Sequence record: PQ843332.1
Length of the DNA: 64,000 nucleotides
Strand: one strand, 5' to 3'
Origin: Escherichia phage P-GXEC-L2P5
Part shown: piece after piece, positions 1-52,800 of the stretch
Layout of the letters: each line of letters opens with the position of its first letter
Numbering within the stretch: position 1 is the stretch's first letter
Made by a program: the position numbers and the translations under genes
The notes under the pieces: generated by a model
What the model was told of the DNA's origin: nothing
Seen by the model: the letters and a program-made list of their open reading frames with translations, nothing else
Databases searched by the model: none

Positions 1-66
1 TTTAAAGATATCAAGCTAATGGAGCGAATCGCGCTTGATGAAATGGCGCAACAAAACCCCGCATAA
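1..66 (+). CDS. tail assembly chaperone, C-terminal end of the frameshifted gpT-like extension (partial; 5' end outside window)
   Basis: Frame 1 reads FKDIKLMERIALDEMAQQNPA-stop; the same peptide ends the T-frame extension after the G-like chaperone at 49363-49432. Confidence 0.5.
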   Translation, partial: FKDIKLMERIALDEMAQQNPA

Positions 67-604
67 TGAAGCGGGACAAGCGGGACGTCCCGTTTTGTCC
101 CGCCCCTCAAAAACTGCATACTTATTTACTATTATTGCATAAACTAAAAGCGGGACAAGCGGGACGTCCCGATCTGGCACCCCTCTGAAAAGCGCATACC
201 TATTCAGTTTTACTGCATAAACCAAACGGGACAAAAAGCGGGACAAACAAGGGGCGGGACAAAGCGGGACAGCACCCCCGCCCCGCCAGTGCTGCCGCGG
301 GGTTTAGCCGATCGGGACAGGCGGGACAAAGCCCAGTCTTTCAGACTAGACGGGGGTCAATGGCCCCCCTCGCGCGGTTTTTAGCCGATCGGGACAGGCG
401 GGACAAAGCCCAGTCTTTCAGACTAGACGGGGGTCAATGGCCCCCCTCGTCTGAGACTGAATAAGGTTTGTTTTAAATTCGCTGATACAATGTTTCAGAC
501 TAGACGGGGGTCAATGGCCCCCCTCGTCTGAGACTGAATAAGGTTTGTTTTAAATTCGCTGATACAATGTCAACCGGCAACTGCATAAAAAAGGGGGCTG
601 CATA
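67..604. repeat. non-coding repeat module R1: GCGGGACA(A) arrays in direct and inverted orientation, GC-rich tract, repeated strong hairpin, TGCATAAA boxes
   Basis: At least 10 GCGGGACA-type 8-mers; near-palindrome GCGGGACAAGCGGGAC/GTCCCGTTTTGTCCCGC at 70-102; no plausible ORF; paralogous modules at 31353-31610 and 49433-49893. Confidence 0.7.
411..459 (+). terminator. strong stem-loop (cagtctttcagactagacggggg...cccccctcgtctgagactg), terminator-like; also at about 334-371 and 487-535 through tandem duplication
   Basis: Long GC-rich inverted repeat seen directly; no clean U-tract, so terminator function is inferred only. Confidence 0.35.
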
Positions 605-11122: not shown

Positions 11123-12901
11123 ATGGCAGCGGGTACGCTATCCGTAACGAACAATAGCAAGGCTGTAGTAGGGGTCGGCACAACGTTTACCGCGTTTAAA
11201 GCGGGCGACTTCTTAACGCTGGTGGTAGGACAAGTCCCATACACCGTGGCAATCGCGTCCATTGAAAGCGCAACCGCGCTCACGCTGGTACTGCCGTTCG
11301 ACGGCCCAACGGCAACCGGCCTTGCGTGGGATGGCGTTAAGCGCGATACCATGTCGCTGGCAACGATGGGCGTTACCGTACAGGCCCAAAAAGCATTGCG
11401 CTTGATGATTGCAGATGAAAACAACTGGCGTGCAATCTTCGGCGATGCTGAAGAAATCACAGTCACGCTCCCGAACGGGCAAGTTATGCAGGGTATGTCG
11501 TGGGGCTACCTGTCGTCTTTGCTGAAGGAAGTAGACCCCGTTGAGATGCGCAACCTGCAACAACAAGCCGCCGCATCGGAAGCAGCCGCGCAAGGATTCC
11601 GTAACGAGGCGGAAGGCTTCAAGAACGACGCCAACACCATCAAGACGCAGACCAGCCAACTTAAGGCAGATACGCAGGCTATCAAGGACCAAACGAATCA
11701 GATCAAGACTGACACTGGCGTTATTCGTGATGAAGCCAATACCGCGAAGGAGGACGCGCAATCTGCCCGCACTGCCGCGCAAGGATTTCGCAATGAGGCT
11801 GAACAATTCGCTAATAGTGTTAACCCGGAAAACCTACTTGCGAAGGCCAACAACTTAAGTGATGTTGCGGATGTGGCTGTGGCGCGCGAAAACATTGGCG
11901 TAGACCGCCTAACGCAAAACATAACCAGCGGCGAAACACAAATCAGGACTGCGGCGAAGAATAAATGGATCTTCGTTAAGGAAAATGGCGACTGGGGCGG
12001 GTGGGATAATGCCAACAATAAAGCCATGCCGCTGCCGATTGCATTCGGTGGTACGGGGCGCGGCGATAACGTCGCCGAGTTCCGCCAATTCAAATCAAAC
12101 GGCGACACCCAAGATGGGTTAATCATTACGCAGAACGGGTCTGGATTTGGTGGTGTATGCTGGGGGGATTCCGCCAATAAAGTACGCTGGCGCATGGGGA
12201 TTAACGACGCCGCGGGTAATTTTAAGTTGCACTCATATGACGCGTCGGGCGCGTACCGCGATACCTTTATGGAGATCTCTGGATCGGGGATAAGCGGCAT
12301 GGTGTGTCATCGAGATATCATGGTCCGCCCAACAGAGACAGTTCCAGTGTTGTCTTTCGTCCTAAACAACGGAAAAGCTACCGTCCCGGCTGGTAACGTC
12401 CGCACGATGTGGGATACGGTTAACATCAATAGTAATATAATCTATAAATATTTTGAGAAGGGAGACGGCACTGGCTTCACAGTCAACTGGCCCTCATCTG
12501 GTGGTGTTATTGCCCTCCAGGGTACATCAGGAAGGGACTTTAAGAAAGATATTACCGACGCGGACGTTACAGAAGCGGTTGCACGCATTGAACAAATGCG
12601 CATGGTGCGCTACGTGTATAAGGACGATGTGCAGGAGCGCGTCCGCTTCGGCATCATTGCCGAGGAAGCAGAAGAGATTGCGCCTCAATACATCAAACAC
12701 CGTGAGGAGACGTACGATGTGGAGGTGGACCCCGAGACTAACGCCATCGTCGGGGGTAAGACGCGCGACCGTCCGTCGGTAGACGTTAACCCTATCGTGA
12801 TGGACTTGATGGGGTGCGCACAATATGCGATCGCTGAGTGTAAACGCCTGGCGGCGGAAGTGGAGGATTTGAAAGCCGAGATCGCGGCGTTGAAGAAATA
12901 A
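11123..12901 (+). CDS. tail fibre protein with C-terminal intramolecular chaperone (peptidase S74-like) domain
   Basis: Intact 592 aa ORF; coiled repeat region; C-terminal ...RFGIIAEEAEEIAPQYIK...DLKAEIAALKK resembles the auto-cleaving chaperone domain of endosialidase and L-shaped tail fibres. Confidence 0.7.
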   Translation: MAAGTLSVTNNSKAVVGVGTTFTAFKAGDFLTLVVGQVPYTVAIASIESATALTLVLPFDGPTATGLAWDGVKRDTMSLATMGVTVQAQKALRLMIADENNWRAIFGDAEEITVTLPNGQVMQGMSWGYLSSLLKEVDPVEMRNLQQQAAASEAAAQGFRNEAEGFKNDANTIKTQTSQLKADTQAIKDQTNQIKTDTGVIRDEANTAKEDAQSARTAAQGFRNEAEQFANSVNPENLLAKANNLSDVADVAVARENIGVDRLTQNITSGETQIRTAAKNKWIFVKENGDWGGWDNANNKAMPLPIAFGGTGRGDNVAEFRQFKSNGDTQDGLIITQNGSGFGGVCWGDSANKVRWRMGINDAAGNFKLHSYDASGAYRDTFMEISGSGISGMVCHRDIMVRPTETVPVLSFVLNNGKATVPAGNVRTMWDTVNINSNIIYKYFEKGDGTGFTVNWPSSGGVIALQGTSGRDFKKDITDADVTEAVARIEQMRMVRYVYKDDVQERVRFGIIAEEAEEIAPQYIKHREETYDVEVDPETNAIVGGKTRDRPSVDVNPIVMDLMGCAQYAIAECKRLAAEVEDLKAEIAALKK

Positions 12902-15189: not shown

Positions 15190-15752
15190 TCAACGACTAA
15201 GATATTCAAGGAGTTCTCCTTCGCTCATTATTTCAATTTGTGCGCTGCCGGTGGGCGGCGCTTCGTCAAAGATTATCAATTGCTGGCACTTGTTATTGCT
15301 CGGCCCGTTTCAATTTGTGCGCTGCCGGTGGGCGGCGCTTCGTCAAAGATTATCAATTGCTGGCACTTGTTATTGCTCGGCCCGACTTCGCCGGTTACAG
15401 CATGTATGAATCGGATCCGCCAGTCCAGAAGAATTATCAGGTTTGCAGTCTTCCGGGCCAGCTTCGCCCACTTCGTCGACGTGTCCTGATTCAGTAGCAT
15501 GACGGTCCGGCGTCCGTGCGCCGCGCACTCGACCCACGGCAGCGGATCGGAATACGGCGGGTTGCACCACTTCCACCCTTTCAACTCTGACCAGTCCGCA
15601 TCGAGCGCGCTGTGCTCTGCCGTGAAGTAACGCGGTAGCAGGTGGTTGGCATCGCTCGCCGCCATGTCATAACGGAATCTGTACTTCCGGCGCAGCGGTT
15701 TAAATAAAGCTGGCGGCGTGCGCCAGCTATCTTTTTGCTCACTCTTCTGCAT
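15190..15752 (-). CDS. DNA N6-adenine methyltransferase, phage Dam-like (frame broken by duplication near 15231-15382; start duplicated 15752/15829)
   Basis: WRTPPALF N-terminus and NPPY catalytic motif typical of phage Dam family. Confidence 0.65.
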
Positions 15753-17604: not shown

Positions 17605-19329
17605 TCATTTGCGCGCCTTTTTAGCTTTCATGTATTCCATCAAGTCGTCCTGTATATCTCGCTTACTGTCGCGACGCTCGGCGACCAGTTCGTCTAGTGT
17701 TCCGCGCGCCTGGATAATGTAGACGAATACCGGTCGAGGGTGTCCGGCCTGCATCTGGCGAACCGGCCCGATACGTTCAACGATCTGCGAAAAGTGCTCA
17801 AAGTTCCAGGTATCGGAGAAGATTGCCAGGTGATGACCGCCGTCCTGCAAGTTAAGGCCGTGGCCCGCCGATGCCGGGTGTGCAAACATGATGGGGATCT
17901 CGCCCCTGTTCCACGCTTCCATATCCTTATTGCCCTGCTTACCCTTACCCAACGCGACGCCGTGCGGAAATTTCTTCTTAAGACGTGCCAGGTCATGCTT
18001 ATACTGATACGCAACGAGCAACGGCGCGCCGTTCAACTCCTCCACGATACTTTCCAGTGCGTCCAGCTTCGCGTCGTGAATCTTCACCCACTCGTCGGTC
18101 CGTTCGCCGTCTTCGTCCACCTTATACACAGCGCCGGAAGCAAGCTGAAGGCACTTAATTGTCTTCGATGCCGCGTTCGCCGCTTCCACTGTTCCGCTTT
18201 CCAGTTCGGCAAATAGCTCGCTTTCAAACTGGTCGTAAATCTTGCGGGCTTTCTTCGGCAGGTCCACAACAACCGGCGTATAGATTGGCTTGTCGCACCC
18301 GAAGTATTCAGCCGCGTCAACGGTGAGGGATACATCTGACAGACGTTGTTGTATCTCTTTCTCGGAGTTCTTTAGCGGAGCGTGCTGCATAGTGAAGCTG
18401 CCAGGCTTAACAGGCTTGCTAATGAACCAGCGGTCGGTGAATGCCTTATAGCTACTACCGAGGCGTTCACCACCGTCGACGAACCACGTCTGACCCCATA
18501 AGTCTTTCAAGCCGTTTGGTGCGGGTGTGCCGGTCAAGTTAATCCAGCGCTTGACGTGCTTATGTGCAATCGCCGCCAGTGCGCGTGCGCGCTTACTGCC
18601 CTGCTTGCTTCGATAGCCTTTCAGCTTAGTCGATTCATCGGCAACAACGACCGTAAAGGGCCACGCATCGCCGTAATAGTCGACCAGCCACTCAACCACA
18701 TCGTAGTTAACACAAACCACGTTAGCGTCGCTCTCAAGCGCCGCAATACGGTCCTTCTCCGGCCCGGTGCCGTCTACAACCAGCAGGGATGAGAACCGCC
18801 ATTTCTCCTGCTCCGGGGGCCATGTACCTGACGCAACACGCAGCGGGGCCAGCACCAGTACGCGGTCCTCATGATGGGACAGGACGCCAGTCTGGAACAT
18901 TTTATTCAGCGCCCACATTGTCGCGCCGGTTTTACCCGATCCCATTGTCGCCCAGATATTACATCGCTTATGCTTGAGGATGAACGCGGTTATCAACTTC
19001 TGATATTCGCGGCGTCGGAATCGTGCCATATCTTTATTCCGCCTTTTTCCAGACTTCGGTTTCACTGTTCCAGTTCCTTTTTGTAGCGTCGTAGTTGGTG
19101 GCGTGTCCGATGTGGACGCCTTTTTCCAGACTTCGGTTTCACTGTTCCAGTTCCTTTTTGTGGCGTCGTAGTTGGTGGCGTGTCCGATGTGGACACCAGT
19201 AGCCCGGAAGCTCTTAAATTTTTGCCAGCACACCGTCAACGGCAGCGGGTCATTCATGCCAGCAATAAACCACACGCGATCGCCCGGTTTGCATTCGCCC
19301 AGCTTGGTGAGTCGGTAATGTTCTTTCAT
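17605..19329 (-). CDS. superfamily 2 DNA helicase (DEAD/DEAH-like N domain + helicase C domain); N-terminal region carries duplication near 19070-19160
   Basis: Walker A ATMGSGKTGA, DEST box (VVADESTKL), helicase C motifs (HPASAGHGLNLQ); start choice from GGGAGA RBS. Confidence 0.75.
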   Translation of the reverse strand: MKEHYRLTKLGECKPGDRVWFIAGMNDPLPLTVCWQKFKSFRATGVHIGHATNYDATKRNWNSETEVWKKASTSDTPPTTTLQKGTGTVKPKSGKRRNKDMARFRRREYQKLITAFILKHKRCNIWATMGSGKTGATMWALNKMFQTGVLSHHEDRVLVLAPLRVASGTWPPEQEKWRFSSLLVVDGTGPEKDRIAALESDANVVCVNYDVVEWLVDYYGDAWPFTVVVADESTKLKGYRSKQGSKRARALAAIAHKHVKRWINLTGTPAPNGLKDLWGQTWFVDGGERLGSSYKAFTDRWFISKPVKPGSFTMQHAPLKNSEKEIQQRLSDVSLTVDAAEYFGCDKPIYTPVVVDLPKKARKIYDQFESELFAELESGTVEAANAASKTIKCLQLASGAVYKVDEDGERTDEWVKIHDAKLDALESIVEELNGAPLLVAYQYKHDLARLKKKFPHGVALGKGKQGNKDMEAWNRGEIPIMFAHPASAGHGLNLQDGGHHLAIFSDTWNFEHFSQIVERIGPVRQMQAGHPRPVFVYIIQARGTLDELVAERRDSKRDIQDDLMEYMKAKKARK

Positions 19330-19355
19330 CGTCATGTCTCCCAAAAATGGCGGGA

Positions 19356-19372
19356 CAAGCCCGCCGTATTAA
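19356..19372 (-). terminator. hairpin ggcgggacaagcccgcc followed by T-run on minus strand (duplicated at 19425-19441)
   Basis: Perfect 6-bp GC stem; lies just upstream of helicase RBS. Confidence 0.35.
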
Positions 19373-19449
19373 TTATTTTTGCTCTGCGCCGGTAATGTTC
19401 TTTCATCGTCATGTCTCCCAAAAATGGCGGGACAAGCCCGCCGTATTAA

Positions 19450-19623
19450 TTATTTTTGTTCTGCACGGTAGCGGCGCTGCCGTTCGCGCTCTTTCTTATT
19501 GCGGCACGATTTGCACTCTGCCCGATACCCGTCTGGACTGCGCGCAGTCTTACCGGTGTATTTGTGGAACTGGGATAGCGGCTTTACACAGCCGCAATTA
19601 CTACAACGTTTTTCTTCAATCAT
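19450..19623 (-). CDS. small zinc-ribbon protein (CxxC...CxxC), hypothetical
   Basis: MIEEKRCSNCG...ECKSCRNKKERERQRR; GAGGA RBS before ATG 19623. Confidence 0.4.
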   Translation of the reverse strand: MIEEKRCSNCGCVKPLSQFHKYTGKTARSPDGYRAECKSCRNKKERERQRRYRAEQK

Positions 19624-28516: not shown

Positions 28517-28846
28517 ATGAATATCAACGACGCAATCGAAATGCTAACGAAGACTGTCTGCAGTGAGACTAGCCGGTCCTGGGCGTATACCGATGCCGTG
28601 GGGGCGGTGCTATTTGAAATCGAACGTCTGCGACTTACCGAAAAAGAATTGCGCGCCAGGCTGGAATTACTCAACGGTACGGCAGCCAGCAAGCTGCAAA
28701 AGCACAATGAAGAAATGGAAGAATACAAAAAACAGGTTATCCGTCTACGTGAGGAAGGTAAATCCTGGGCTATGATCGCCGAGCTAACCGGAATCAACCA
28801 GAGCACCGTGCGCTCCTGGGTACGCAATAATAAAACTTCGAAGTAA
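28517..28846 (+). CDS. HTH DNA-binding protein, putative transcriptional regulator
   Basis: 109 aa; C-terminal GKSWAMIAELTGINQSTVRSWVRNN helix-turn-helix; coiled-coil middle. Confidence 0.5.
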   Translation: MNINDAIEMLTKTVCSETSRSWAYTDAVGAVLFEIERLRLTEKELRARLELLNGTAASKLQKHNEEMEEYKKQVIRLREEGKSWAMIAELTGINQSTVRSWVRNNKTSK

Positions 28847-28856
28847 GGCAACGGCA

Positions 28857-31352
28857 ATGAGCTTAATTAAATTCGCTGTAACACGACCCGCTAAAAAAGG
28901 CGAAAAAGCCAGGGCGGAAAACTTCCAGATGACCACCGATGAATTTTTCGAATTTATCAATGATGCGAAAGAAATCGCGAAAAAGCCAGGGCGGAAAACT
29001 TCCAGATGACCACCGATGAATTTTTCGAATTTATCAATGACGCGAAAGAAATATCATCGGTGCATATCAACAAGACCGAGGATAAAGCGGAGTATGCGCG
29101 CCGCAAGCGTAAGGCCGATGGCATCGTAGCGTATACCAGTGACGGCTTACGCCGCAAGACCAGCGCGGTGGACCGCTCGATCCTGTTCTTTGATATTGAC
29201 CGCACCGACACTCGCACCTTACGCCGCTGCCGTAAGGCGTTCATTGACGCGGGTCTGGAACACGTATTCCACACAACCACCGGCGACCGCCACCCGCTTA
29301 AAGGCGGCACGCGTTGCGCTCGCTTCCTGGTACTCACTGATAAGCCGGTCCCGGCTGAAGACCTGGGCCGTGTCCAGTATGCGCTATTACATCAACTTGG
29401 TCTGTCGGATGTGGACTTCGACGATTGCACGAAAGACACAAACCGCCTGATGTACCTGCCGCACCAGCAATCGGTTATTAAGTGCCACTACGGCAAACGT
29501 GCCCGCGTCCGTCGTCTGCTTCGCCTGGCGGATACGCTTGGCGTGGAGAAGGAAGAAGTACGCCGCGAGCTTACCCAGGGCGACGACGCAGTGGCGGACG
29601 GGATTCTGGACTGGTGCTTCCAGGCAGGATTCGAGGAGTTATCTTCCGGTCGCGGTTATGAAGTGCCGTGCCCGAACGAACATCTGCACAGCGGCGAAGG
29701 GTCGACGGCTATCATGGTCAAGGATGGCGAGATCCGTTTCAAGTGTATGCACACCGGCAACGAGTGTTGCTCTGAGCTGAACAGACACCAGCACCTGGCG
29801 CTACGTCTTATCGGGATACCGGACCACCTGAACGTCGAGCCGCACAACATGTCACGTAAGCAAATCGCCGCCATCCTCCCAGGGCTGGACGACGAGGAAG
29901 TCGAATCCTTATATGAACATATTGTTGATGCGGTTGGCGACGGCGAAGAATACGGCGTGTGCACCGATGCGGATCTGGATAACGAGCCGGTCGCACTGTT
30001 GTTGATGCAGTTGGCGACGGCGAAGAATACGGCGTGTGCACCGATGCGGATCTGGATAACGAGCCGGTCGCACTATTCAGTAAGCACGACCCGATCATCG
30101 AAGGCCTGGTCAACTTCAAATCGACCTGGTACATGGCTGGCGAGTCGAACATCGGTAAATCGTTCTACGTGCTGGGCCAAATGGGCGCGGTTGCCGCGGG
30201 GATTCCGTTCGGCGGTGCGAAGGTCGTCCAGTCTCATTGCTTCTATTTCGACGCGGAAGGTGGCGAAGCCTCCAACCAGCGTAAGGAAGCATTGCAGATC
30301 AAATATGAGCACGACCTGGACAAGCTGCACATTATTGACCTGCAATCACGCGGCTGGGATATCACCAGCAAATCAGGCTTGCGTGAAGTTATCAGCTTCA
30401 TCAACCGCACCGCTAACGGCGAGCCGGTTGGCCTGGTGGCGTTCGACTCACTCAACCAGACTGTTGCGCTGCGGTCCGCCGATGCAAAACCGTTCGACGA
30501 GAACAACGCCAGCGATATGGGCGAAGTGGTCAAAGCGCTGAAGGCCATTGCGGAAAATACAGGCGGCAGTGCGGGCGTCATCCACCACCCGGCGAAAGGT
30601 GCAAACGGCCGCAGATCTCCCCGTGGGTCCGGCGCGCTGCATGGTGCTGTCGATTCTGCGTTCTTCCTGGAGCAACCGGACGACAACCAGCCAGGTCAAT
30701 TGAACCTGTATCACGAAAAGGCACGTAACGGCATCAAGCAAGCGCCGCGCGGCTTCGTCCTGCTCAAGTGCAAGGTTAAGGTGGATCTCCGCAAGTCCGA
30801 AGCGTTCGAAGCCCACCAGTCCACCAGCACCGGGCCAGACTTCGGCGATGTGGTTGCCGGTTGGGACGTCAAACCAATTGCGTCCACCCCGCGCGACGAG
30901 ACTCTATACCTCGTACCGGTAGCCCTGGCACCGTTCGCGATAGAACAGGCGAAGGCGGCGGGCAAAGCCGCAGTTAAGGAAGAGAACACCGCCGGTCCGC
31001 GCAACGAAAAAGAGAAAGTGCTTTATGCGGCCCTGGAAAAACTGATGGCAGATAACCCTGACCATACTGGATTCAGTAAATCGGCAATTGTACGCCAGGC
31101 GGGACTCGCTAAGGGTGGCACTTCGACGAAGGCAATAGACGATATGGTCGAGCGCGGCGTGATTGGTTTCTATACAGATCCGCACACCGGGGCCATATAT
31201 GGGTCGTCGAATTTAGTCATCAAATCTGATATCCCCTGATTGGTTTCTATACAGACCCGCACACCGGGGCCATATATGGGTCGTCGAATTTAGTCATCAA
31301 ATCGGAGATCCCCATAACGCTTTCGGCGACCGATGACGACCTGAAAGACTAA
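28857..31352 (+). CDS. primase-helicase: primase-polymerase-like N domain, zinc-binding region, RecA-like C domain (frame broken by duplications near 28910-29050, 29940-30070 and 31170-31290)
   Basis: ILFFDIDR and VFHTTTGDRH primase-like motifs; Cys/His cluster; Walker A GESNIGKS and Walker B VAFDSLN. Confidence 0.7.
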
Positions 31353-31610
31353 ATCCTATTTTGAGTGTTTTTAGCTGGTCGCATTGGTTGCCGTGCAGTA
31401 TAAATATAGTGAATAGTTATGCAATAAAACTGCATAAAGTAAGCGGGACAAAAAGCGGGACAAACTTGGGGCGGGACAAAGCGGGACAGCACCCCCGTCC
31501 CGCCCCGGATGACGCGGCCTGGAGAGGAGCGGGACAGGCGGGACAACTCCCAGTCTTTCAGACTAGACGGGGGTCAGCGGCCCCCCTCGTCTGAGACTGC
31601 ATAAAATCCG
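31353..31610. repeat. non-coding repeat module R2, paralogue of R1
   Basis: aagcgggacaaaaagcgggacaaacttggggcgggacaaagcgggacagcacccccgtcccgcc is nearly identical to R1 226-290; same hairpin at about 31553-31607. Confidence 0.7.
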
Positions 31611-31753
31611 GGATTGCAAAATACACGGCAGCACATTGGAAATCGCGGTCGTCGATGAACTGGGCAACCAATGCGAGTTGCAGAATGTGGTGTGAAAAAT
31701 GCAGTTTGCAGTCACAGCTGATAGCGATCAACTTTTTCATGCGCATGATTAAT

Positions 31754-31794
31754 ATTGGTTGCATTCATGCCAGCACCCTGCTAGATTGGTTGCA
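31754..31794 (+). promoter_or_regulatory. two copies of ATTGGTTGCA upstream of gene 31816
   Basis: ATTGGTTGCA at 31754-31763 and AGATTGGTTGCACACCAACA at 31783-31802; identical extended 17-mer upstream of minus-strand gene start 43131. Confidence 0.45.
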
Positions 31795-31815
31795 CACCAA
31801 CATGAGGGCTGAACA

Positions 31816-32142
31816 ATGAAAGCGATTATCTGGAATTACGCAATGGCTATGGCGAAGGCACAAGAAGCGGCGGAGTTCGCCGGGGAGGGGGCGGAAGCAG
31901 TAGAGAGACTATCGGCAGCGTGGTCCGTTGTTCGCGTCACGCAGCAGGCCATCGCCTGTATGCTTGAGCGCCGCTTCGACACGATGGCGGAGATCCAGCC
32001 GTTGGCGAACGCTATCCAGGACTACGCGCTTGCATTTGCCCGTGAACGCCTGGCGTATCGCTTCGGGATCGGAGAGACGGCAGTGACAAACGTTGCCCGG
32101 ATTAAAGCCCAGCGTGAGCTATTCGCCCAGCTTGCGAAATAA
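31816..32142 (+). CDS. hypothetical protein (early region)
   Basis: 108 aa intact ORF directly downstream of motif pair. Confidence 0.4.
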   Translation: MKAIIWNYAMAMAKAQEAAEFAGEGAEAVERLSAAWSVVRVTQQAIACMLERRFDTMAEIQPLANAIQDYALAFARERLAYRFGIGETAVTNVARIKAQRELFAQLAK

Positions 32143-35336: not shown

Positions 35337-36556
35337 ATGCACCCGCAAACTAAAATTACCGATGAGCAATTGATCGCAGAAATTCAGGAAGGGACTACAG
35401 TTAAAGAGATTGCGAAGAAGTACGGCATCGCACTTCGAAATGTCTATATGCGCAAAGCCCGCCTGTCTAAAAAGGGGATTGGTCACGGCAATGATGCAGT
35501 GATCCGTAAGCGCGTTGCCGATGGTTTTGGTGTTAAGCGCGTATCGGCCCTGGTACGCGGCAATGGCGAAGAGGTCATGTCGTGGGTCATCACTGAGCAG
35601 GACAAAGAGCGCCAACTCGAAGCCATGCGCGCTGTTGCAATGGCGAAGAGGTCATGTCGTGGGTCATCACTGAGCAGGACAAGGAGCGCCAACTCGAAGC
35701 CATGCGCGCTGTTGTCGAGGGTATGAACAGCGAAATCACACCGGCAGCGCCCGTAAACGCCACGCCAGTCCCGATTCAGGCGCTCGACTTGCTCAACCTG
35801 TACACAGTGTCCGACTTCCACCTGGGTATGCTGGCGTGGGGCGAGGAGACTGGCGAAGACTGGGATATGGCGATTGCTGAAGACCTGTTCTACCGCTGGT
35901 TTGTCGAAGCCTTCGCCCGCGCACCGGACGCAGGAACTGCCGTTATCAATATCCTCGGGGATATGGCCCACTTTGATAGCCTTGATGCCGTCACACCGGC
36001 AAGCGGTCACGTACTGGACGCCGACACACGATACCAGAAGTTGGTCCGCTATATGATTCGCATGGTGCGCAACGTGGTTGACCTGGCGCTGCAAAAACAC
36101 CACAAAGTAAAACTGCTAATCGTCCAGGGTAATCATGACGAGTCGGGCATGATTTGGCTTGCTGAGATGTTCAATACCCTGTATGAGAACGAGCCGCGCG
36201 TCGATGTGGACACGTCCCCGGACGTCTACAAAATGGTGCAGCACGGTAAGACCACGCTATTTTTCCACCACGGGCACAAAGCGCGATTCGATGTTATCGA
36301 GCAGGTTATGATCGCTAAATTCAGACAGGCGTTCGGGGCGAGCGAATACAGCTACGCGCACGTAGGCCATTTGCACCACCAGAAGATTGTTGAATCCCGC
36401 AACATGATTGTCGAACAGCACAGGACGCTCGCAGCGAAAGACGCCTACGCCAGTCGTGGCGGCTGGATGAGCGGTCGCAGCGCAAACGTCATCACCTATA
36501 GCGCCAACTACGGAGAAGTAGCGCGCTTAACCATTAGCCCGGAAATGTTGAAGTAA
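35337..36556 (+). CDS. metallophosphoesterase (calcineurin-like) with N-terminal HTH domain (frame broken by duplication near 35560-35710)
   Basis: N-terminal TVKEIAKKYGIALRNVYMRKARL; phosphoesterase motifs ILGDMAHFDS, VQGNHDE, FFHHGHK, HVGHLHH. Confidence 0.55.
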
Positions 36557-38788: not shown

Positions 38789-40691
38789 ATGACCGTTAAC
38801 GTTGACAACCAGCACCCGCTCTATGCGCGCATAGCGCCAGAGTGGAAAATGATCCGTGACTGCGTAGCAGGGGAGCGCGCCGTGAAGGCGTGCGGGCCAT
38901 TGTACCTGCCACACCCCGCAAGCGGGGACACCACCGACCCGAAATCACGGGCACGCTATAAGGCATATAAGCAACGCGCTGTCTTCCTGAACGCCACCGC
39001 CCGCACACTGAATGCGCTGTTAGGTGTCGCCTTCGCCAAACCGGTGAGTATGGACCTTTCCGGGGCAATGGCTGACCTGATTGATGACGTAGACGGCAGC
39101 GGGATGCCACTGGCGCAACTACTGCGCGGCGCTATGTCGGAAGTGCTGCAATCAGGCCGTGCCGGTTTTATGGTGGACTACGACCGCCAGGCGCATTTTG
39201 ACGAACTGGGTAACGTAGTGCCGCAGACCGCCGCTGAAATGGCGGCACACCGCCCGCTTATCCGCCTGTATACGGCTGAACAGATCATCAACTGGCGGCG
39301 CAGACCGCCGCTGAAATGGCAGCACACCGCCCGCTTATCCGCCTGTATACGGCTGAACAGATCATCAACTGGCGGCAGACCCACGGGGTAGACACGCTAA
39401 TCGTGCTGAAGGAGACGGACGAAATCAGCACCGAAGACCCGGACGACTTCGCAAACCACGAAGTTACGATCTGGACCGAGTGCTGAAGGAGACGGACGAA
39501 ATCAGCACCGAAGACCCGGACGACTTCGCAAACCACGAAGTAACGATCTGGACCGAGCTTCGCATGATTGCAGGTGCGGCACATGCCCGCCGCTGGTTTT
39601 ACAACGCGGACACGTCCGAGGTGCAAATGGACTTGCCGCGGGGATTCACCCGCACCGATCTTGTACCGCTGGTGGATGCCTCCGGTAATGCGCTTACTCA
39701 ACTGCCATTTTGCTGGTGTGGTGCGGTGGACAACAACGCGACACCGGACGCCGCACCGCTGGCGGATATTGCGTCCATCAACATTAAGCACTACAACGCC
39801 GAGTGGACAACAACGCGACGCCGGACGCCGCACCGCTGGCGGATATTGCGTCCATCAACATTAAGCACTACAACGCCGAAGCAGACGTCGCCGAGATTGC
39901 GCACATTGTGGGCCAACCTACACTCATTGCGACCGGTCTGACCCAATCATGGGCCGATAAAAACCTGAAGGGAGGCATCGCGCTCGGTGCAACTAAGGGC
40001 GTTATCTTGGGCCAGAACATGGACGCTAAACTGCTTCAAGCTGAGGAGAGAAACCTGTCAGTTGCGCTGTGTGAGCGACGCGAATTGCAAATGGCTAAAC
40101 TGGGCGCGGCCCTGGTCGAGAAGGGGGAAACCTGTCAGTTGCGCTGTGTGAGCGACGCGAGTTGCAAATGGCTAAACTGGGCGCGGCCCTGGTCGAGAAG
40201 GGGACCGCACCTAAGACGGCAACTGAAGCGGCCTACGATGCGCAGACTGATAACAGTATCCTGTCACTGATTGCCGGTAACGTTGAGAAGGCTTTCAACC
40301 GTGCGCTGCAGATCGTCAAGCTGTTCACGGGGGACACCGCAGATCAACGTGTAACGCTGAATAAGTTCTACACCGAGATCACGGTGGATGCACAGCTTAT
40401 GACCGCAATGATGGCGGGTGTGCAGACCGGTACGGTCCGTCTGGCGGACTTTATCAAGTGGATGATGCACAGCTTATGACCGCGATGATGGCGGGTGTGC
40501 AGACCGGTACGGTCCGTCTGGCGGACTTTATCAAGTGGATGATGGCCCAGGGCGTTATTGATGACTCGCAAACCGTCGAGCAGGTGGAAGACGAACTGCG
40601 AAATCAGAATCCATTGCCTCAAATGTCCCCGGATGCGGTAGAATCTACCGAAGAAGACCAGGACAAGGTAGCGGACAATGGCGAAGACAAT
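38789..40691 (+). CDS. portal protein (frame broken by five duplications between about 39260 and 40500)
   Basis: About 560 aa after removing duplicates; position directly after terminase large subunit; acidic C-terminus. Confidence 0.55.
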
Positions 40692-48963: not shown

Positions 48964-49432
48964 TTGAGGCGGCGCGGCGCTTTTATGGCCCGCCCACTTC
49001 GTACTATCTCGAACTGATGGGATTGCGTGAAAAAAACTAATTGAGGCGGCGCGACGCTTTTATGGCCCGCCGCCACCCTCCGAAGATTTAGCCGCGAGTT
49101 TATGGGGCGCGGCCCCTGAAGATGTTTGCCCACCAGTTGCGCTATGGCCCGACAACGCGAAGGTAGTCGCCGTCTTCACGGATTGCTCCACGCAATGGCG
49201 CACCGGATTCGGCGGCGCATACGGCATCGACTACGGCGTACTGGAATGGCTTTTTAAGATGCACGGCATCGAAAACGCGCCGGATTCGGTGGCGCATACG
49301 GCATCGACTACGGCGTACTGGAATGGCTATTTAAGATGCACGGCATCGAAAACGCGCAACGTGCGTTTAAAGATATCAAGCTAATGGAACGCGTTGCGCT
49401 GGATGAAATGGCGCGGCAGAACCCCGCATAAC
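48954..49432 (+). CDS. gpT-like extension reached by -1 frameshift from the G-like gene (region contains duplications near 48937-49080 and 49180-49330)
   Basis: The -1 frame after AAAAAAC reads KKLIEAARRFYGPPPPSEDLAASLWGAAPEDV... and ends ...KLMERVALDEMARQNPA-stop at 49432. Confidence 0.5.
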
Positions 49433-49893
49433 GGAGCGGGACAGGCGGGACGTCCCGTTTTGTCCCGCCACCACTAAACCGCATATATACTCACTTTCAT
49501 TGCATAAATTAAAAGCGGGACAGGGGTGCTGTCCCGCTTTGTCCCGCCCCCAAAATGTGAATATCTATTCGATTTTCGTGCATAAAACAAACGGGACAAA
49601 AAGCGGGACAGAATTGGGCGGGACAAAGCGGGACAGCACCCCTGTCCCCGCCAGTGCTGCCGCGGGTTTTAGCCGATCGGGACAGGCGGGACAAAGCCCA
49701 GTCTTTCAGACTAGACGGGGGGTCTGTCACCCCCCTCGTCTGAGACTGAATAAGGTTTGTTTTAAATTCGCTGATACAATGACCGACGGCAACTGCATAA
49801 AAAGGGCCCCCCTCGTCTGAGACTGAATAAGGTTTGTTTTAAATTCGCTGATACAATGACCGACGGCAACTGCATAAAAAGGGGGACTGCATA
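49433..49893. repeat. non-coding repeat module R3, second-copy counterpart of R1
   Basis: Same GCGGGACA arrays, inverted pair GCGGGACAGGGGTGCTGTCCCGC, hairpin and TGCATAAA boxes; ORFs called here are spurious. Confidence 0.7.
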
Positions 49894-52800
49894 ATGGCAG
49901 ATCAGGCAGCGGGCATCACGCTCAAGGCGGACGTCGCGCAAATTAAAACGGCGAATACTGTGCTGGACACATTTGCGCAGAAATCCGAGAACACAGAACA
50001 GAAAGTCAAAAAATTAAACGACACCCTCGGCAAGTCGAAAAAGGTCACTGGCGACGCCGCGGGCGGAATGGAAAAGTTAGCGACTGAATCGCAGCGCGCC
50101 GCCGACGGCATGACGAAACAGGAGCGACTAGCCAGCCGATTAGGCATGTCGACCAAGAACCTGGGATTCGCATCGCCGCCGACGGCATGACGAAACAGGA
50201 GCGACTCGCCAGCCGATTAGGCATGTCGACCAAAAACCTGGGATTCGCATCGCGGAACGCCGCATTCCAGTTACAGGATATCGCGGTTACGCTTGAGATG
50301 GGTATGCCGGTGCACCGCGTCATGCTTCAGCAGCTACCGCAGCTTACTGGGGCGTTTGGCGGACTGGGAAACACGCTGCATTATGTCGTCGGCACACTCG
50401 GCCCGTTAGGGATTGGCATCGCTGCATTAACGGCAACGCTCGGCGTAGGGGTGGCAATTACGACCCGCGCAGAGAACCAGGTGGCGGCGCTTAATAAGAC
50501 GCTGGCGCTGTCCGGTAATATTTCAGGCCTGACAGCTAACCAGATCCTTGTGCTGTCCGAGAACGCCGAGCGCATGGGCGGGTCATTTCGCAAGACGCGT
50601 GACACAATCCAGGCGCTGGCGGCGGCGGGTGTGAAAGCGGGTGGTGACTTTGGCGCATTGGCTAAGGTAGTGAATGACTTTGCGAAGGTGTCCAGCCAGC
50701 CGATCGAGGATGTGGTGGCGGCGGTGGCGAAGCTGTCAAGAAGGTAGTGAATGACTTCGCGAAGGTGTCCAGCCAGCCGATCGAGGATGTGGTAGCGGCG
50801 GTGGCGAAGCTGTCAACCGACCCCGTTGGCGGACTGCGTGCGCTGGCGGATAAGTATCACGTCGTAAACGAAGCGCAGATCCAGCAGGTACAGTCGCTCG
50901 TTGATGCGGGTCGTGAGACAGACGCAGTTGCGTTGGCTAACAAAACAGCCGCTGCGTCGTTCACCAGCATGACCAATGAGATCAAGGCGAACATGGGTAC
51001 GCTTGAGCGATCTATGAACGTCGTCACATCGGCAGCCAAATCAATGTGGGACGCTATCCTGGATGTGGGTCGCGCGCAGTCCTCCAATGAGTCCGAGATG
51101 AAAGCGCGCGAATCACTCCAGCGCATGACCACGGCTTACTATGCCGAGATGAAAGCGGTAAACGCTGCCGGTGGGGTAATGACTGAAGCGCACTGCAGCG
51201 GCTGACCACGGCTTACTATGCCGAGATGAAAGCGGTAAACGCTGCCGGTGGGGTAATGACTGAAGCGCAGAAAGCACGTATTAACATGCTTTACAGCGAA
51301 CTGGTCGCCCAGGAAAAAGTGGTGGCGTCGCTCACCCTGCGTAACCGTGCGGAGCGAGACAACGCCCGCGCCGCAGATGAATCCGCAAAGGCGAACGAGG
51401 AGGCCAACCGCACCGCCCGCGACCGCGCCGCGTTTGAAAAGGAGTACGCAACTAACGCGAAGAAGCGCGCCGACGAGATCGCCCGCCTCAATTTGCTGAA
51501 TAAGCGCGGCGTTATTGATGAGAAAGAGCTTGCCGAGGCGGTTAAGCAGGTAAACGAGCGTTACAAAGACCCGGCCCCGAAGAAGGCCGCGGCTGTTCGC
51601 GTGGATGCCGGTATGAAAATGCTGGAAGTCGCACGGAGCGAACTGGCCCAGCTCCGAAAAAGGCCGCGGCTGTTCGCGTGGATGCCGGTATGAAAATGCT
51701 GGAAGTCGCACGGAGCGAACTGGCCCAGCTTCGAGAATCCGGCAAGCAGATCGAAGCCAACGCGTCTACGCAGACCCGCACGCAACGCGCGCAAGCGGCC
51801 TTAAACAAGCTGATCGCCGACAATGAGCAGTTAATCGCCGCAAGCAAAGAAAGAGCGCTAACGGCAGCCGAAAAGCAGCAATTAGTCGAGTTCGGGCGCG
51901 TGAAGGAAGTCCGCGAGCAGATCGTCGAAGAAGCCAAATTGCTGGACGCGAAAGAGAAGCAGGTTAAGGCGCACGCGCAGATCGATGCCTTCGTTAAGAA
52001 CCAGAACGCCGAACTATGCTGGATGCGAAAGAGCAGCAGGTTAAGGCGCACGCGCAGATCGATGCCTTCGTTAAGAACCAGAACGCCGAACTAAAAGCCA
52101 CCGCCGCGGGGTATGCGCTTTCCACTCGCGAAGCGGCAAACCTGCGCGAAGAATTGCAGCTAATCGACCGCCTGAAGCGTGTAGGCGCTAACGATACCGA
52201 TATTGACAAGGCGGTGTCTAAGCTGCGAGAATGCAGCTAATTGACCGCCTGAAGCGGGTTGGCGCTAACGATACCGATATTGATAAGGCGGTGTCTAAGC
52301 TGCGAGAAGTGCAGGAAGCACAGACCGGCGCTAACGCCTCGTTATGGGATGGATTCAGTCGCGGGCTTAAGGATAGCGTGGATGAAATGGGTAACGGATA
52401 TACGCAGATGGCGTCTCTCACGAAATTCACATTCAGCGCTATGCAGGACACGATGAACGAGTTTTTCGAGACTGGCAAGCTGAACGCAAAGGATATGGTT
52501 AAGTCCATCCTGAGCGAATTAATCAAGCTGGCTACCTCGCAGGCGTTCAAGTCCATCGTTAGCGCTTTCGGTGGCGACGGCGGCAAAAACGGATTGTTCG
52601 GCGCTATCTTCTCGGGCCTCACCAAGAATGCGGACGGCGGAGCGTACGTGGCGACGGCGGCAAAAACGGATTGTTCGGCGCTATCTTCTCGGGCCTCACT
52701 AAGAATGCGGACGGCGGAGCGTACACCGGAGGCAATCTCGCGGCCTATTCGGGGCAAGTGGTGAGCCAGCCTACCTTTTTCAGTTATGGCGTCCAGGCGT

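Follow-up and report, generated by a model that had tools for sequence, protein, structure and literature searches.

Candidate iteron-type origin modules in Dhillonvirus phages: a selected repeat and hairpin element between the tail-assembly chaperone and tape-measure genes

Introduction

Phage P4 carries octamer repeats, both direct and inverted, in two clusters that lie kilobases apart: the origin, ori, and crr, a second repeat cluster separate from it. The P4 alpha protein combines a primase, a helicase and a C-terminal winged-helix domain for origin binding. The winged helix of alpha binds the origin repeats, and the origin of pRN1 is a stem-loop placed 3' of ORF904, the gene for a primase-helicase-winged-helix protein (PMC4234260). 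The element described here, R3, covers positions 49433-49893 of a stretch of 64,000 nucleotides (nt) from Escherichia phage P-GXEC-L2P5 (sequence record PQ843332.1), hereafter the window. It is the non-coding gap between the frameshift product of the tail-assembly chaperone and the tape-measure gene of a Dhillonvirus. The module R1 has the same position elsewhere in the window, and a related module, R2, follows the helicase-primase gene. R3 is a real, selected element, most likely of a known type, the iteron origin module, in an unusual second location, and the favoured reading is that Dhillonvirus phages have two replication-origin modules of the iteron type, of which R3 is the second.

The features shared with P4 are the direct and inverted octamers, the two clusters kilobases apart and a protein with primase, helicase and, by prediction, a C-terminal winged-helix origin-binding domain. 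Unlike in P4, the helicase core is AAA_25/RepA-like, the repeats have an unrelated sequence, 17-27 kilobases (kb) separate the two clusters, one of which is in the tail operon, and each module, known here from sequence, carries an extra conserved hairpin. The helicase-primase matches Pfam AAA_25 only, with no PDB sequence match to P4 alpha, and the likeness is one of analogy, not of family membership. As in pRN1, the candidate origin element lies immediately 3' of a multifunctional replication gene and keeps a stem-loop structure while its sequence diverges between relatives; pRN1, however, has no iterons and a superfamily 3 helicase, whereas here the iterons dominate and the hairpin is of about 50 nt. 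The logic of iterons and AT-rich DNA is also that of the lambda origin, and 15 viral contigs hold CGGGACA arrays with 11-bp phasing inside O-like or DnaD-like open reading frames (ORFs). In contrast to lambda, R2 and R3 are intergenic and the presumed initiator is the helicase-primase rather than an O protein. The oriV of IncQ RSF1010 likewise has iterons, AT-rich DNA and a hairpin, and AAA_25 is the RepA-type helicase family; a sequence search of the helicase-primase against solved structures gave weak PDB matches only, 1g8y among them. RSF1010 differs in having three separate proteins and two facing ssi hairpins, instead of one fused protein and one hairpin per module.

Both loci are flagged in the record of Sodalis phage SO-1 (NC_013600.1), as 'region A' (11214-11597), which precedes the tape-measure gene, and 'region B' (40178-40657), which follows the helicase-primase gene. 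They are described there as mutually similar, with 'direct, inverted and palindromic repeat sequences'; unlike the present analysis, that annotation is a feature note only. No discussion of these repeats was found in the searchable literature on Dhillonvirus, SO-1, HK578 and origins, and a literature search for the motif as a string returned primer noise only. Dhillonviruses are among the most frequently isolated E. coli phages for therapy and biocontrol, and their replication origin has never been defined. If the two modules are origins, they are cis elements for the building of replicons and are to be spared in phage engineering.

Results

Composition of R3

R3 begins 2 nt past the TAA of the chaperone extension and stops at the ATG of the tape-measure gene, which agrees with an earlier reading made from the letters alone (the sequence-only reading), where the repeat module had been given the same position in R1 and R3. 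Within it are 13 repeats of the GCGGGACA type together with AT-rich tracts, TGCATAAA boxes and a hairpin of 50 nt (Table 1). The window has 27 copies of GCGGGACA, a number that none of 100 shuffles reached, where 3.3 are expected, and 10 copies of TGCATAAA, where 2.0 are expected. The GCGGGACA copies are clustered at 71-405 (R1), 31443-31545 (R2) and 49436-49693 (R3), with spacings mostly of 9-16 nt, i.e. roughly a helical turn.

The AT-rich tracts of R3 (72-76% AT, genome mean 45%) are placed between inverted repeat clusters, which as DNA hairpins have folding energies (dG) of -12.9 (cluster A, z -4.3) and -14.5 (cluster B, z -5.6). The second tract includes TGTGAATAT, a putative DnaA box with an 8/9 consensus match judged by eye. 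The segment of about 180 nt that R3 has in common with R2 starts at 49592, and its four direct repeats (49592-49635) end in the palindrome GGGACAG-CACCC-CTGTCCC (49630-49648). The sequence-only reading had also described a close inverted pair with an 8-nt spacer as kept from R1 to R3. Such a pair is present in R3, but its spacer is N7 and it does not occur in the R1 of the window; the inverted pair common to R1 and R3 has an N17 spacer. Upstream of R3, diversity over 317 nt is codon-periodic (0.020/0.193/0.044) and the DNA is therefore coding.

Selection on the motifs

The locus was aligned for 15 distinct Dhillonviruses (IMG/VR loci and Escherichia phage JL1) and the mean pairwise diversity was taken as the measure. 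Third codon positions gave 0.198 and 0.261, the remaining spacer 0.205 and the hairpin loop 0.300. The values were 0.088 at repeat positions, 0.074 in the promoter-like box, 0.048 in the TGCATAAA boxes and, over the 41 nt of the two hairpin arms, 0.006 and 0.000. Evolution is far slower at repeats, boxes and hairpin stems than at synonymous sites, whereas spacers and loop are neutral. The sequence-only reading had staked its case on the region evolving more slowly than neutral sites, and for the motifs (0.000-0.088) this is what the third positions show.

Arrays at replication-initiator genes

R2 starts 79 nt past the stop of the helicase-primase gene and lies directly 3' of this gene in the window, in Shigella phage EP23, in JL1 and in SO-1. 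The protein (754 residues, EP23p46) belongs to Pfam AAA_25 and to the PHROG 'replicative helicase-primase', and is presumed to be the binder of the repeats; its C-terminal domain was modelled as a winged helix. R2 and the 3' half of R1/R3 form a paralogous pair of about 180 nt. All 14 complete Dhillonvirus contigs examined have an R1-type and an R2-type module with exactly two copies of the hairpin 17-mer, and the similarity of R1 to R2 is 0.815 within a genome against 0.794 between genomes (permutation p = 0.003). Matches to the module were found in 158 phage records, essentially all of them from Dhillonvirus, and in none of 5,426 E. coli genomes; therefore there is no sign of a satellite or prophage that carries it. 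In more distant chaperone homologues the tape-measure position is free of arrays, and a 68%-identical relative has, in the DNA examined, the helicase-side copy only. Two matches to the hairpin 17-mer in large contigs (L225, L233) are without arrays and were taken as chance.

The association with initiator genes extends to unrelated phages. A scan of IMG/VR for GCGGGACA-N1-12-GCGGGACA gave 120 loci on unrelated contigs (51-68% GC), and clusters of at least four CGGGACA are found in 63 of them. In 28 of these 63, the cluster is located between -221 and +460 nt from the 3' end of an AAA_25 primase-helicase gene, mostly within 50 nt and in several cases inside the last codons; a gene of this type is present in only one of the 57 cluster-free loci. 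The primase-helicases of the 28 loci have a Pfam AAA_25 core and Prim-Pol or Toprim/Zn-ribbon N-termini. At 15 further loci (L026, L030, L035, L047, L052, L053, L055, L057, L067, L074, L075, L082, L085, L102 and L115) the array is inside the initiator ORF itself, in one orientation, with 11-bp phasing and in two groups about 66-80 nt apart. These ORFs are, by PHROGs, DnaD-like helicase loaders or O-like replication initiation proteins, and one more locus has its array inside a DUF1376 replication protein. An array in or next to an initiator gene is thus seen for R2 and for 43 of the 63 unrelated arrays, R3 itself being in the tail operon. Profile-profile comparison of the O-like initiator N-termini with the Dhillonvirus C-terminal domain gave no similarity (probability 0.2%), and a common DNA-reading domain is therefore unsupported. 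The arrays inside the O-like and DnaD-like genes encode a repetitive SGT/AGQ linker.

Repeats and second clusters in related phages

In the Guernseyvirinae the syntenic helicase-primase gene is followed by a non-coding gap with different repeats: TTGCGAGT in Klebsiella phage VLCpiS11a, GGGGGAGA in Salmonella phage VSiA and TTCCGCACA in Serratia phage Otaku. Their helicase cores are 65-71% identical to that of EP23, and the C-terminal ~85 residues 31-34%. The repeats GGCGGACAA, CGGACAA, TTCCGACA, AGGGATAAA and GGGATGAA are added by 29 IMG/VR family members, and at least seven different repeats are found along the helicase-primase family. Judged from these sequences, the repeat changes with the C-terminal domain of the helicase-primase among relatives.

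The two-cluster design is also found outside the Dhillonviruses. VLCpiS11a (L160) has a second TTGCGAGT cluster at 35818-35899 and Otaku (L162) a second inverted TTCCGCACA pair at 15472-15493, both in an intergenic gap of the head-gene block and each with a long GC-rich hairpin and a ACGGCAGCA box, as at the phage's own first cluster. An ACGGCA(G/A)C box lies 210-300 nt past the helicase-primase stop in 20 of the 29 family loci. A short lineage-specific repeat array, accompanied by a hairpin and a conserved box and placed immediately 3' to the gene of an AAA_25 helicase-primase, could serve as an annotation rule, which would allow origins to be annotated in many uncultured phages. The box, as ACGGCA(G/A)C(A), also lies at the 3' end of the second clusters, where the surrounding repeats and hairpins differ; a role as a transcript start or leader, or else in priming, is conceivable.

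The hairpin

As DNA, the hairpin of R3 folds on both strands, with dG of -15.2 and -15.5 (z -4.2 and -4.0). Across 29 copies, chosen without regard to the stem, the stem shows one terminal mismatch. In the 24 distinct copies, 15 of the 20 pairs never vary, 98% of cells pair, and the apical pair alone takes alternative pairings (UG, GC and UA). The loop variants differ between genomes and also between the two modules of one genome. The change of loop on a kept stem had been pointed out by the sequence-only reading and is correct, GTCTGTCA in R3 and TCAATGG in R1 being carried by an identical stem. Its interpretation as a compensatory pattern fails, because the stem is invariant within the genus, and a fixed stem with a variable loop is no compensation.

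For covariation, suggested in that reading as a check across homologues, the near-invariant stem accordingly leaves little room within the genus; coordinated change, a joint switching of 5-mers, appears only in the wider helicase-primase family. Six helicase-primase lineages have one design between the repeats and the ACGGCARC box: a 5-mer X and its reverse complement X' enclose a loop of 3-5 nt, and a G-rich hairpin then separates this X' from a second one. Dhillonvirus and two further lineages have AGTCT as X, and TCATC, TCCTC or TCTCC is found in one group each, with the copies switching together; such an X/X'/X' triple was found in 1.1% of shuffled sequences. The switching preserves complementarity and would support a hairpin or cruciform, but it fits a repeated protein-binding half-site equally well. 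An RNAalifold analysis of the family hairpins, on a MAFFT alignment, was mis-registered and was discarded. The apical loop of the JL1/R3 type, TCTGTC (in the region 49705-49742), recurs in the hairpin loops of distant lineages (L200, L204, L205, L208 and L211), and thus the loop may not vary entirely freely.

Strain mosaic and 77-bp duplications in the window

The region 49000-50400 is 99.1% identical to JL1 (genus Dhillonvirus), with 1401 window bases for 1170 JL1 bases, an excess of 231 or 3 x 77. The region 28800-31900 is 99.5% identical to EP23, the window being again longer by 231 bases. About 80 exact or near-exact 77-bp tandem duplications were located across the window by Tandem Repeats Finder, for example at 1222-1372, 29922-30074, 31160-31313, 49199-49357, 49730-49883 and 50097-50253. 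They do not occur in the reference phages, disrupt ORFs, the helicase-primase and tape-measure genes among them, and look like an artefact of assembly or of another kind. When the window was tiled against complete EP23 and JL1, 23-36 kb was EP23-like (99-100%), 40-52 kb JL1-like (99-100%), and 1-22 kb and 53-64 kb had no close match to either. At least three Dhillonvirus strains make up the window, a mosaic that covers more than one lap of a genome of ~44 kb.

R1 and R3 are therefore alleles of one locus and not two copies in one genome. Consequently, the description of R3 as a divergent second copy has to be given up: it is the R1 locus of another strain, and a chimeric assembly lies beneath the idea of its retention. 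The substitutions and small indels noted between R1 and R3 are real, although they do not separate two genomic copies; after de-duplication, R1 (384 nt) and R3 (386 nt) are 85.6% identical with 6 gap columns. Over the first 600 nt of the tape-measure gene the identity is 85.7%, and conservation sits in the motifs rather than in the module region overall. Because 49807-49883 duplicates 49730-49806, the real R3 module has 386 nt, and three of its four TGCATAAA boxes and one promoter-like box are genuine. The arrays, the hairpin and the TGCATAAA boxes are thus kept in R3 as had been stated, except for the one artefactual box. Strain-mosaic assembly and 77-bp duplications can disguise alleles as paralogues, which is a matter of data quality.

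The GCGGGACA copies at 19350 and 19427 were rejected as module parts: they belong to one ordinary GC hairpin (GGCGGGACAAGCCCGCC) at 19313-19464 that a 77-bp duplication has doubled. Many deposited Dhillonvirus records begin or end inside or beside either module, at the R1-type in PNS1, BEK2-2, CHD5UKE2, Maverick, Kente and Lzu_P3, and at the R2-type in PTXU06, WFI and 22664B1. Such ends are expected where assemblers break at the only long repeat, a physical end being the alternative.

Table 1. Coordinates of the modules, their parts and the neighbouring genes (positions in the window unless a contig is named)
Feature	Position	Strand	Remarks
R1	61-604	+	Chaperone/tape-measure module of another strain; inflated by two overlapping 77-bp duplications
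Helicase-primase gene	29006-31352	+	AAA_25 core, predicted C-terminal winged helix; broken by 77-bp duplications in the window
R2	31431-31632	+	In-genome paralogue: TGCATAAA, six repeats, same hairpin (31551-31599), ACGGCAGC (31625-31632)
TAA stop of the tail-assembly-chaperone frameshift extension (gpT-like)	49429-49431	+	Left border
Repeat cluster A	49436-49468	+	GCGGGACA, 12-bp palindrome CGGGACGTCCCG (49446-49457), inverted TGTCCCGC (49461-49468)
AT-rich tract 1	49469-49514	+	Up to 76% AT; TGCATAAA box 49501-49508
Repeat cluster B	49515-49547	+	GCGGGACA-N7-TGTCCCGC (49515-49537) and second TGTCCCGC (49540-49547)
AT-rich tract 2	49548-49591	+	TGTGAATAT; TGCATAAA box 49579-49586
Four direct repeats	49592-49652	+	Starts 49592, 49603, 49618, 49628; ending in a palindrome
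Two direct repeats	49678-49693	+	CGGGACA-G-GCGGGACA; kept in R1-type and R2-type copies
Imperfect hairpin/palindrome, 50 nt	49699-49748		AGTCT, loop, AGACT, G6, GTCTGTCA-type loop, C6, GTCTGAGACTG
Promoter-like segment	49772-49801	+	Extended -10-like TGATACAAT (49772-49780), conserved box ACGGCAAC (49786-49793), TGCATAAA box (49794-49801)
Second copy of a 77-bp duplication	49807-49883		Artefactual, exact copy of 49730-49806; not part of the biological element; not in JL1
ATG of the tape-measure protein (JL1 gp46)	49894-49896	+	Right border
ACGGCA(G/A)C(A) box, window	31625-31632; 49786-49793
ACGGCA(G/A)C(A) box, L160	5009; 35677
ACGGCA(G/A)C(A) box, L162	26243; 15336

Discussion

The reading of the modules as iteron origins is drawn from several lines: repeats in both orientations together with AT-rich tracts and a hairpin; arrays linked to two types of initiator gene, a repeat that tracks the C-terminal domain and a predicted winged helix in that domain; a two-cluster design that recurs in Dhillonvirus, VLCpiS11a and Otaku; selection on repeats, boxes and hairpin arms and not on spacers; R1 and R2 slightly more alike within a genome; and the precedents of P4 alpha and pRN1. 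The octamers would be binding sites for the winged-helix C-terminal domain of the phage's own helicase-primase. Once bound, the helicase-primase would open the AT-rich DNA and load itself, with the hairpin as a possible structure-specific loading or priming signal. R2 may be the ancestral copy, beside the helicase-primase gene. R1/R3 would then be a duplicate of about 180 nt of R2, extended by two further repeat/AT units of 79 nt and placed between the chaperone and tape-measure genes, where it may either be a second origin or serve R2 as a partner in cis, as crr serves ori in phage P4. The segment 49772-49801 is a probable restart promoter and leader of the tape-measure gene, and an extended -10 promoter at the 3' end of R1/R3 would restart tail-gene transcription; the consensus promoter scanner, without a -35, made no call at 49772-49801.

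Several points weigh against this reading. Binding and origin firing are deduced from sequence and predicted structure, and the C-terminal winged helix is a prediction of moderate confidence from 7 sequences. No sequence homology was detected between the Dhillonvirus C-terminal domain and those parts of the other CGGGACA-associated initiators that bind DNA, so that domains of unrelated appearance would have to read one and the same heptamer. No second cluster was found in Salmonella phage VSiA, and no clear arrays in TS6 or Golestan. GC skew follows gene orientation and, being confounded by it, is uninformative on the origin. In addition, the orientation of the module is always that of transcription, and a promoter-like box lies at its end, which also suits a transcriptional role.

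Such a role is the main rival, though on balance an unlikely one. R3 would be a transcriptional control unit for late genes, with the GCGGGACA arrays as activator or repressor sites, the hairpin as an insulator or attenuator against read-through from the chaperone genes and TGATACAAT as a regulated tape-measure/tail promoter; R2 would play the same part for lysis and head genes. Both modules are co-oriented with a long rightward unit, and the promoter-like box and ACGGCA(G/A)C are just upstream of the next gene. A 'terminator' is annotated here in GenBank record WF5505, and a small helix-turn-helix protein, EP23p45 (HTH_23/sigma-70 region-4-like), is encoded beside the helicase-primase. On the other hand, the arrays of unrelated phages track replication-initiator genes, often inside coding sequence, a sigma-70 scan gave no canonical promoter, and the hairpin has no T-run after it on either strand and was not called by the intrinsic terminator scanner at 49699-49748. 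Among the pattern-fetched loci, a homologue of EP23p45 is present in a Dhillonvirus contig only; as a common binder of the arrays this protein was rejected, since among array-bearing loci its homologue is confined to Dhillonvirus. The transcriptional and origin readings can also be joined, in a bipartite origin whose second module gates the adjacent promoter and whose hairpin is a switch, in Dhillonviruses and some Guernseyvirinae; this is conceivable but improbable. The helicase-primase would bridge the module by its own gene and the second module in the late structural operon, events at the second module, either origin firing or occupancy by the initiator, would gate the promoter and couple tail or head expression to replication, and the three-copy X/X'/X' hairpin would be a conformational switch for helicase or primase loading.

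The remaining explanations are less probable still. Long, imperfect stems are known from the RNase III sites of T7, and the long imperfect stem found here resembles them. The hairpin might thus act in the late polycistronic transcript, as an RNase III processing or stabilising site between chaperone and tape-measure or as part of a small RNA, and a stem near-invariant in 29 copies with a variable loop, and arms that covary at family level, would suit this. Nevertheless, both strands fold equally well, and Rfam gave no match at gathering score in the window, EP23, VLCpiS11a or Otaku (sub-threshold microRNA-like hairpin noise only) and nothing in an E-value search of the module. These two results favour an origin element at the level of DNA over a structured RNA. 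Furthermore, wherever the hairpin occurs, repeat arrays beside an initiator gene go with it, an RNA would leave the arrays and the X, X', X' arrangement unexplained, and no promoter is evident upstream of the hairpin within the module, which makes an RNA role very unlikely. The structured element of the sequence-only reading therefore persists as a hairpin that folds and is under selection, and is weakened as an RNA.

Small terminases bind repeated sites, and a role of R3 as the region that the small terminase recognises and binds for packaging (pac) would agree with this and with the several GenBank Dhillonvirus records that begin or end inside R1- or R2-type modules. Still, 11 kb separate the module from the terminase genes, assembly breaks lead one to expect record ends at the only long repeat, and the cross-phage link is to replication genes. 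Headful packaging from circularly assembling genomes has also been reported (PMC9022532), and packaging by this route is highly improbable as the function of R3. A selfish or relic insertion of repeats with no function for the phage can hardly be credited: the neutral spacers and the lack of the module here in more distant chaperone homologues are in its favour, but all 158 matching phage records and every Dhillonvirus contig examined carry the module, the 5,426 E. coli genomes lack it, and its 41 hairpin-arm positions are nearly invariant at ~10% genome divergence.

Other motifs near the modules

A 9-mer, ATTGGTTGC/GCAACCAAT, distinct from the GCGGGACA repeats, occurs 12 times in EP23, nearly always between genes. 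Its sites are at ~31360-31810 in the window, and at 36282, 39116, 39397, 39487, 39518 and other intergenic spots in L122. The 9-mer flanks a promoter-like TTGCAT-N17-TAGATT on both sides and probably serves a phage regulator as its operator. An analogous motif, CAGCCAAC/ATGTTGGCTG, is present in relatives.

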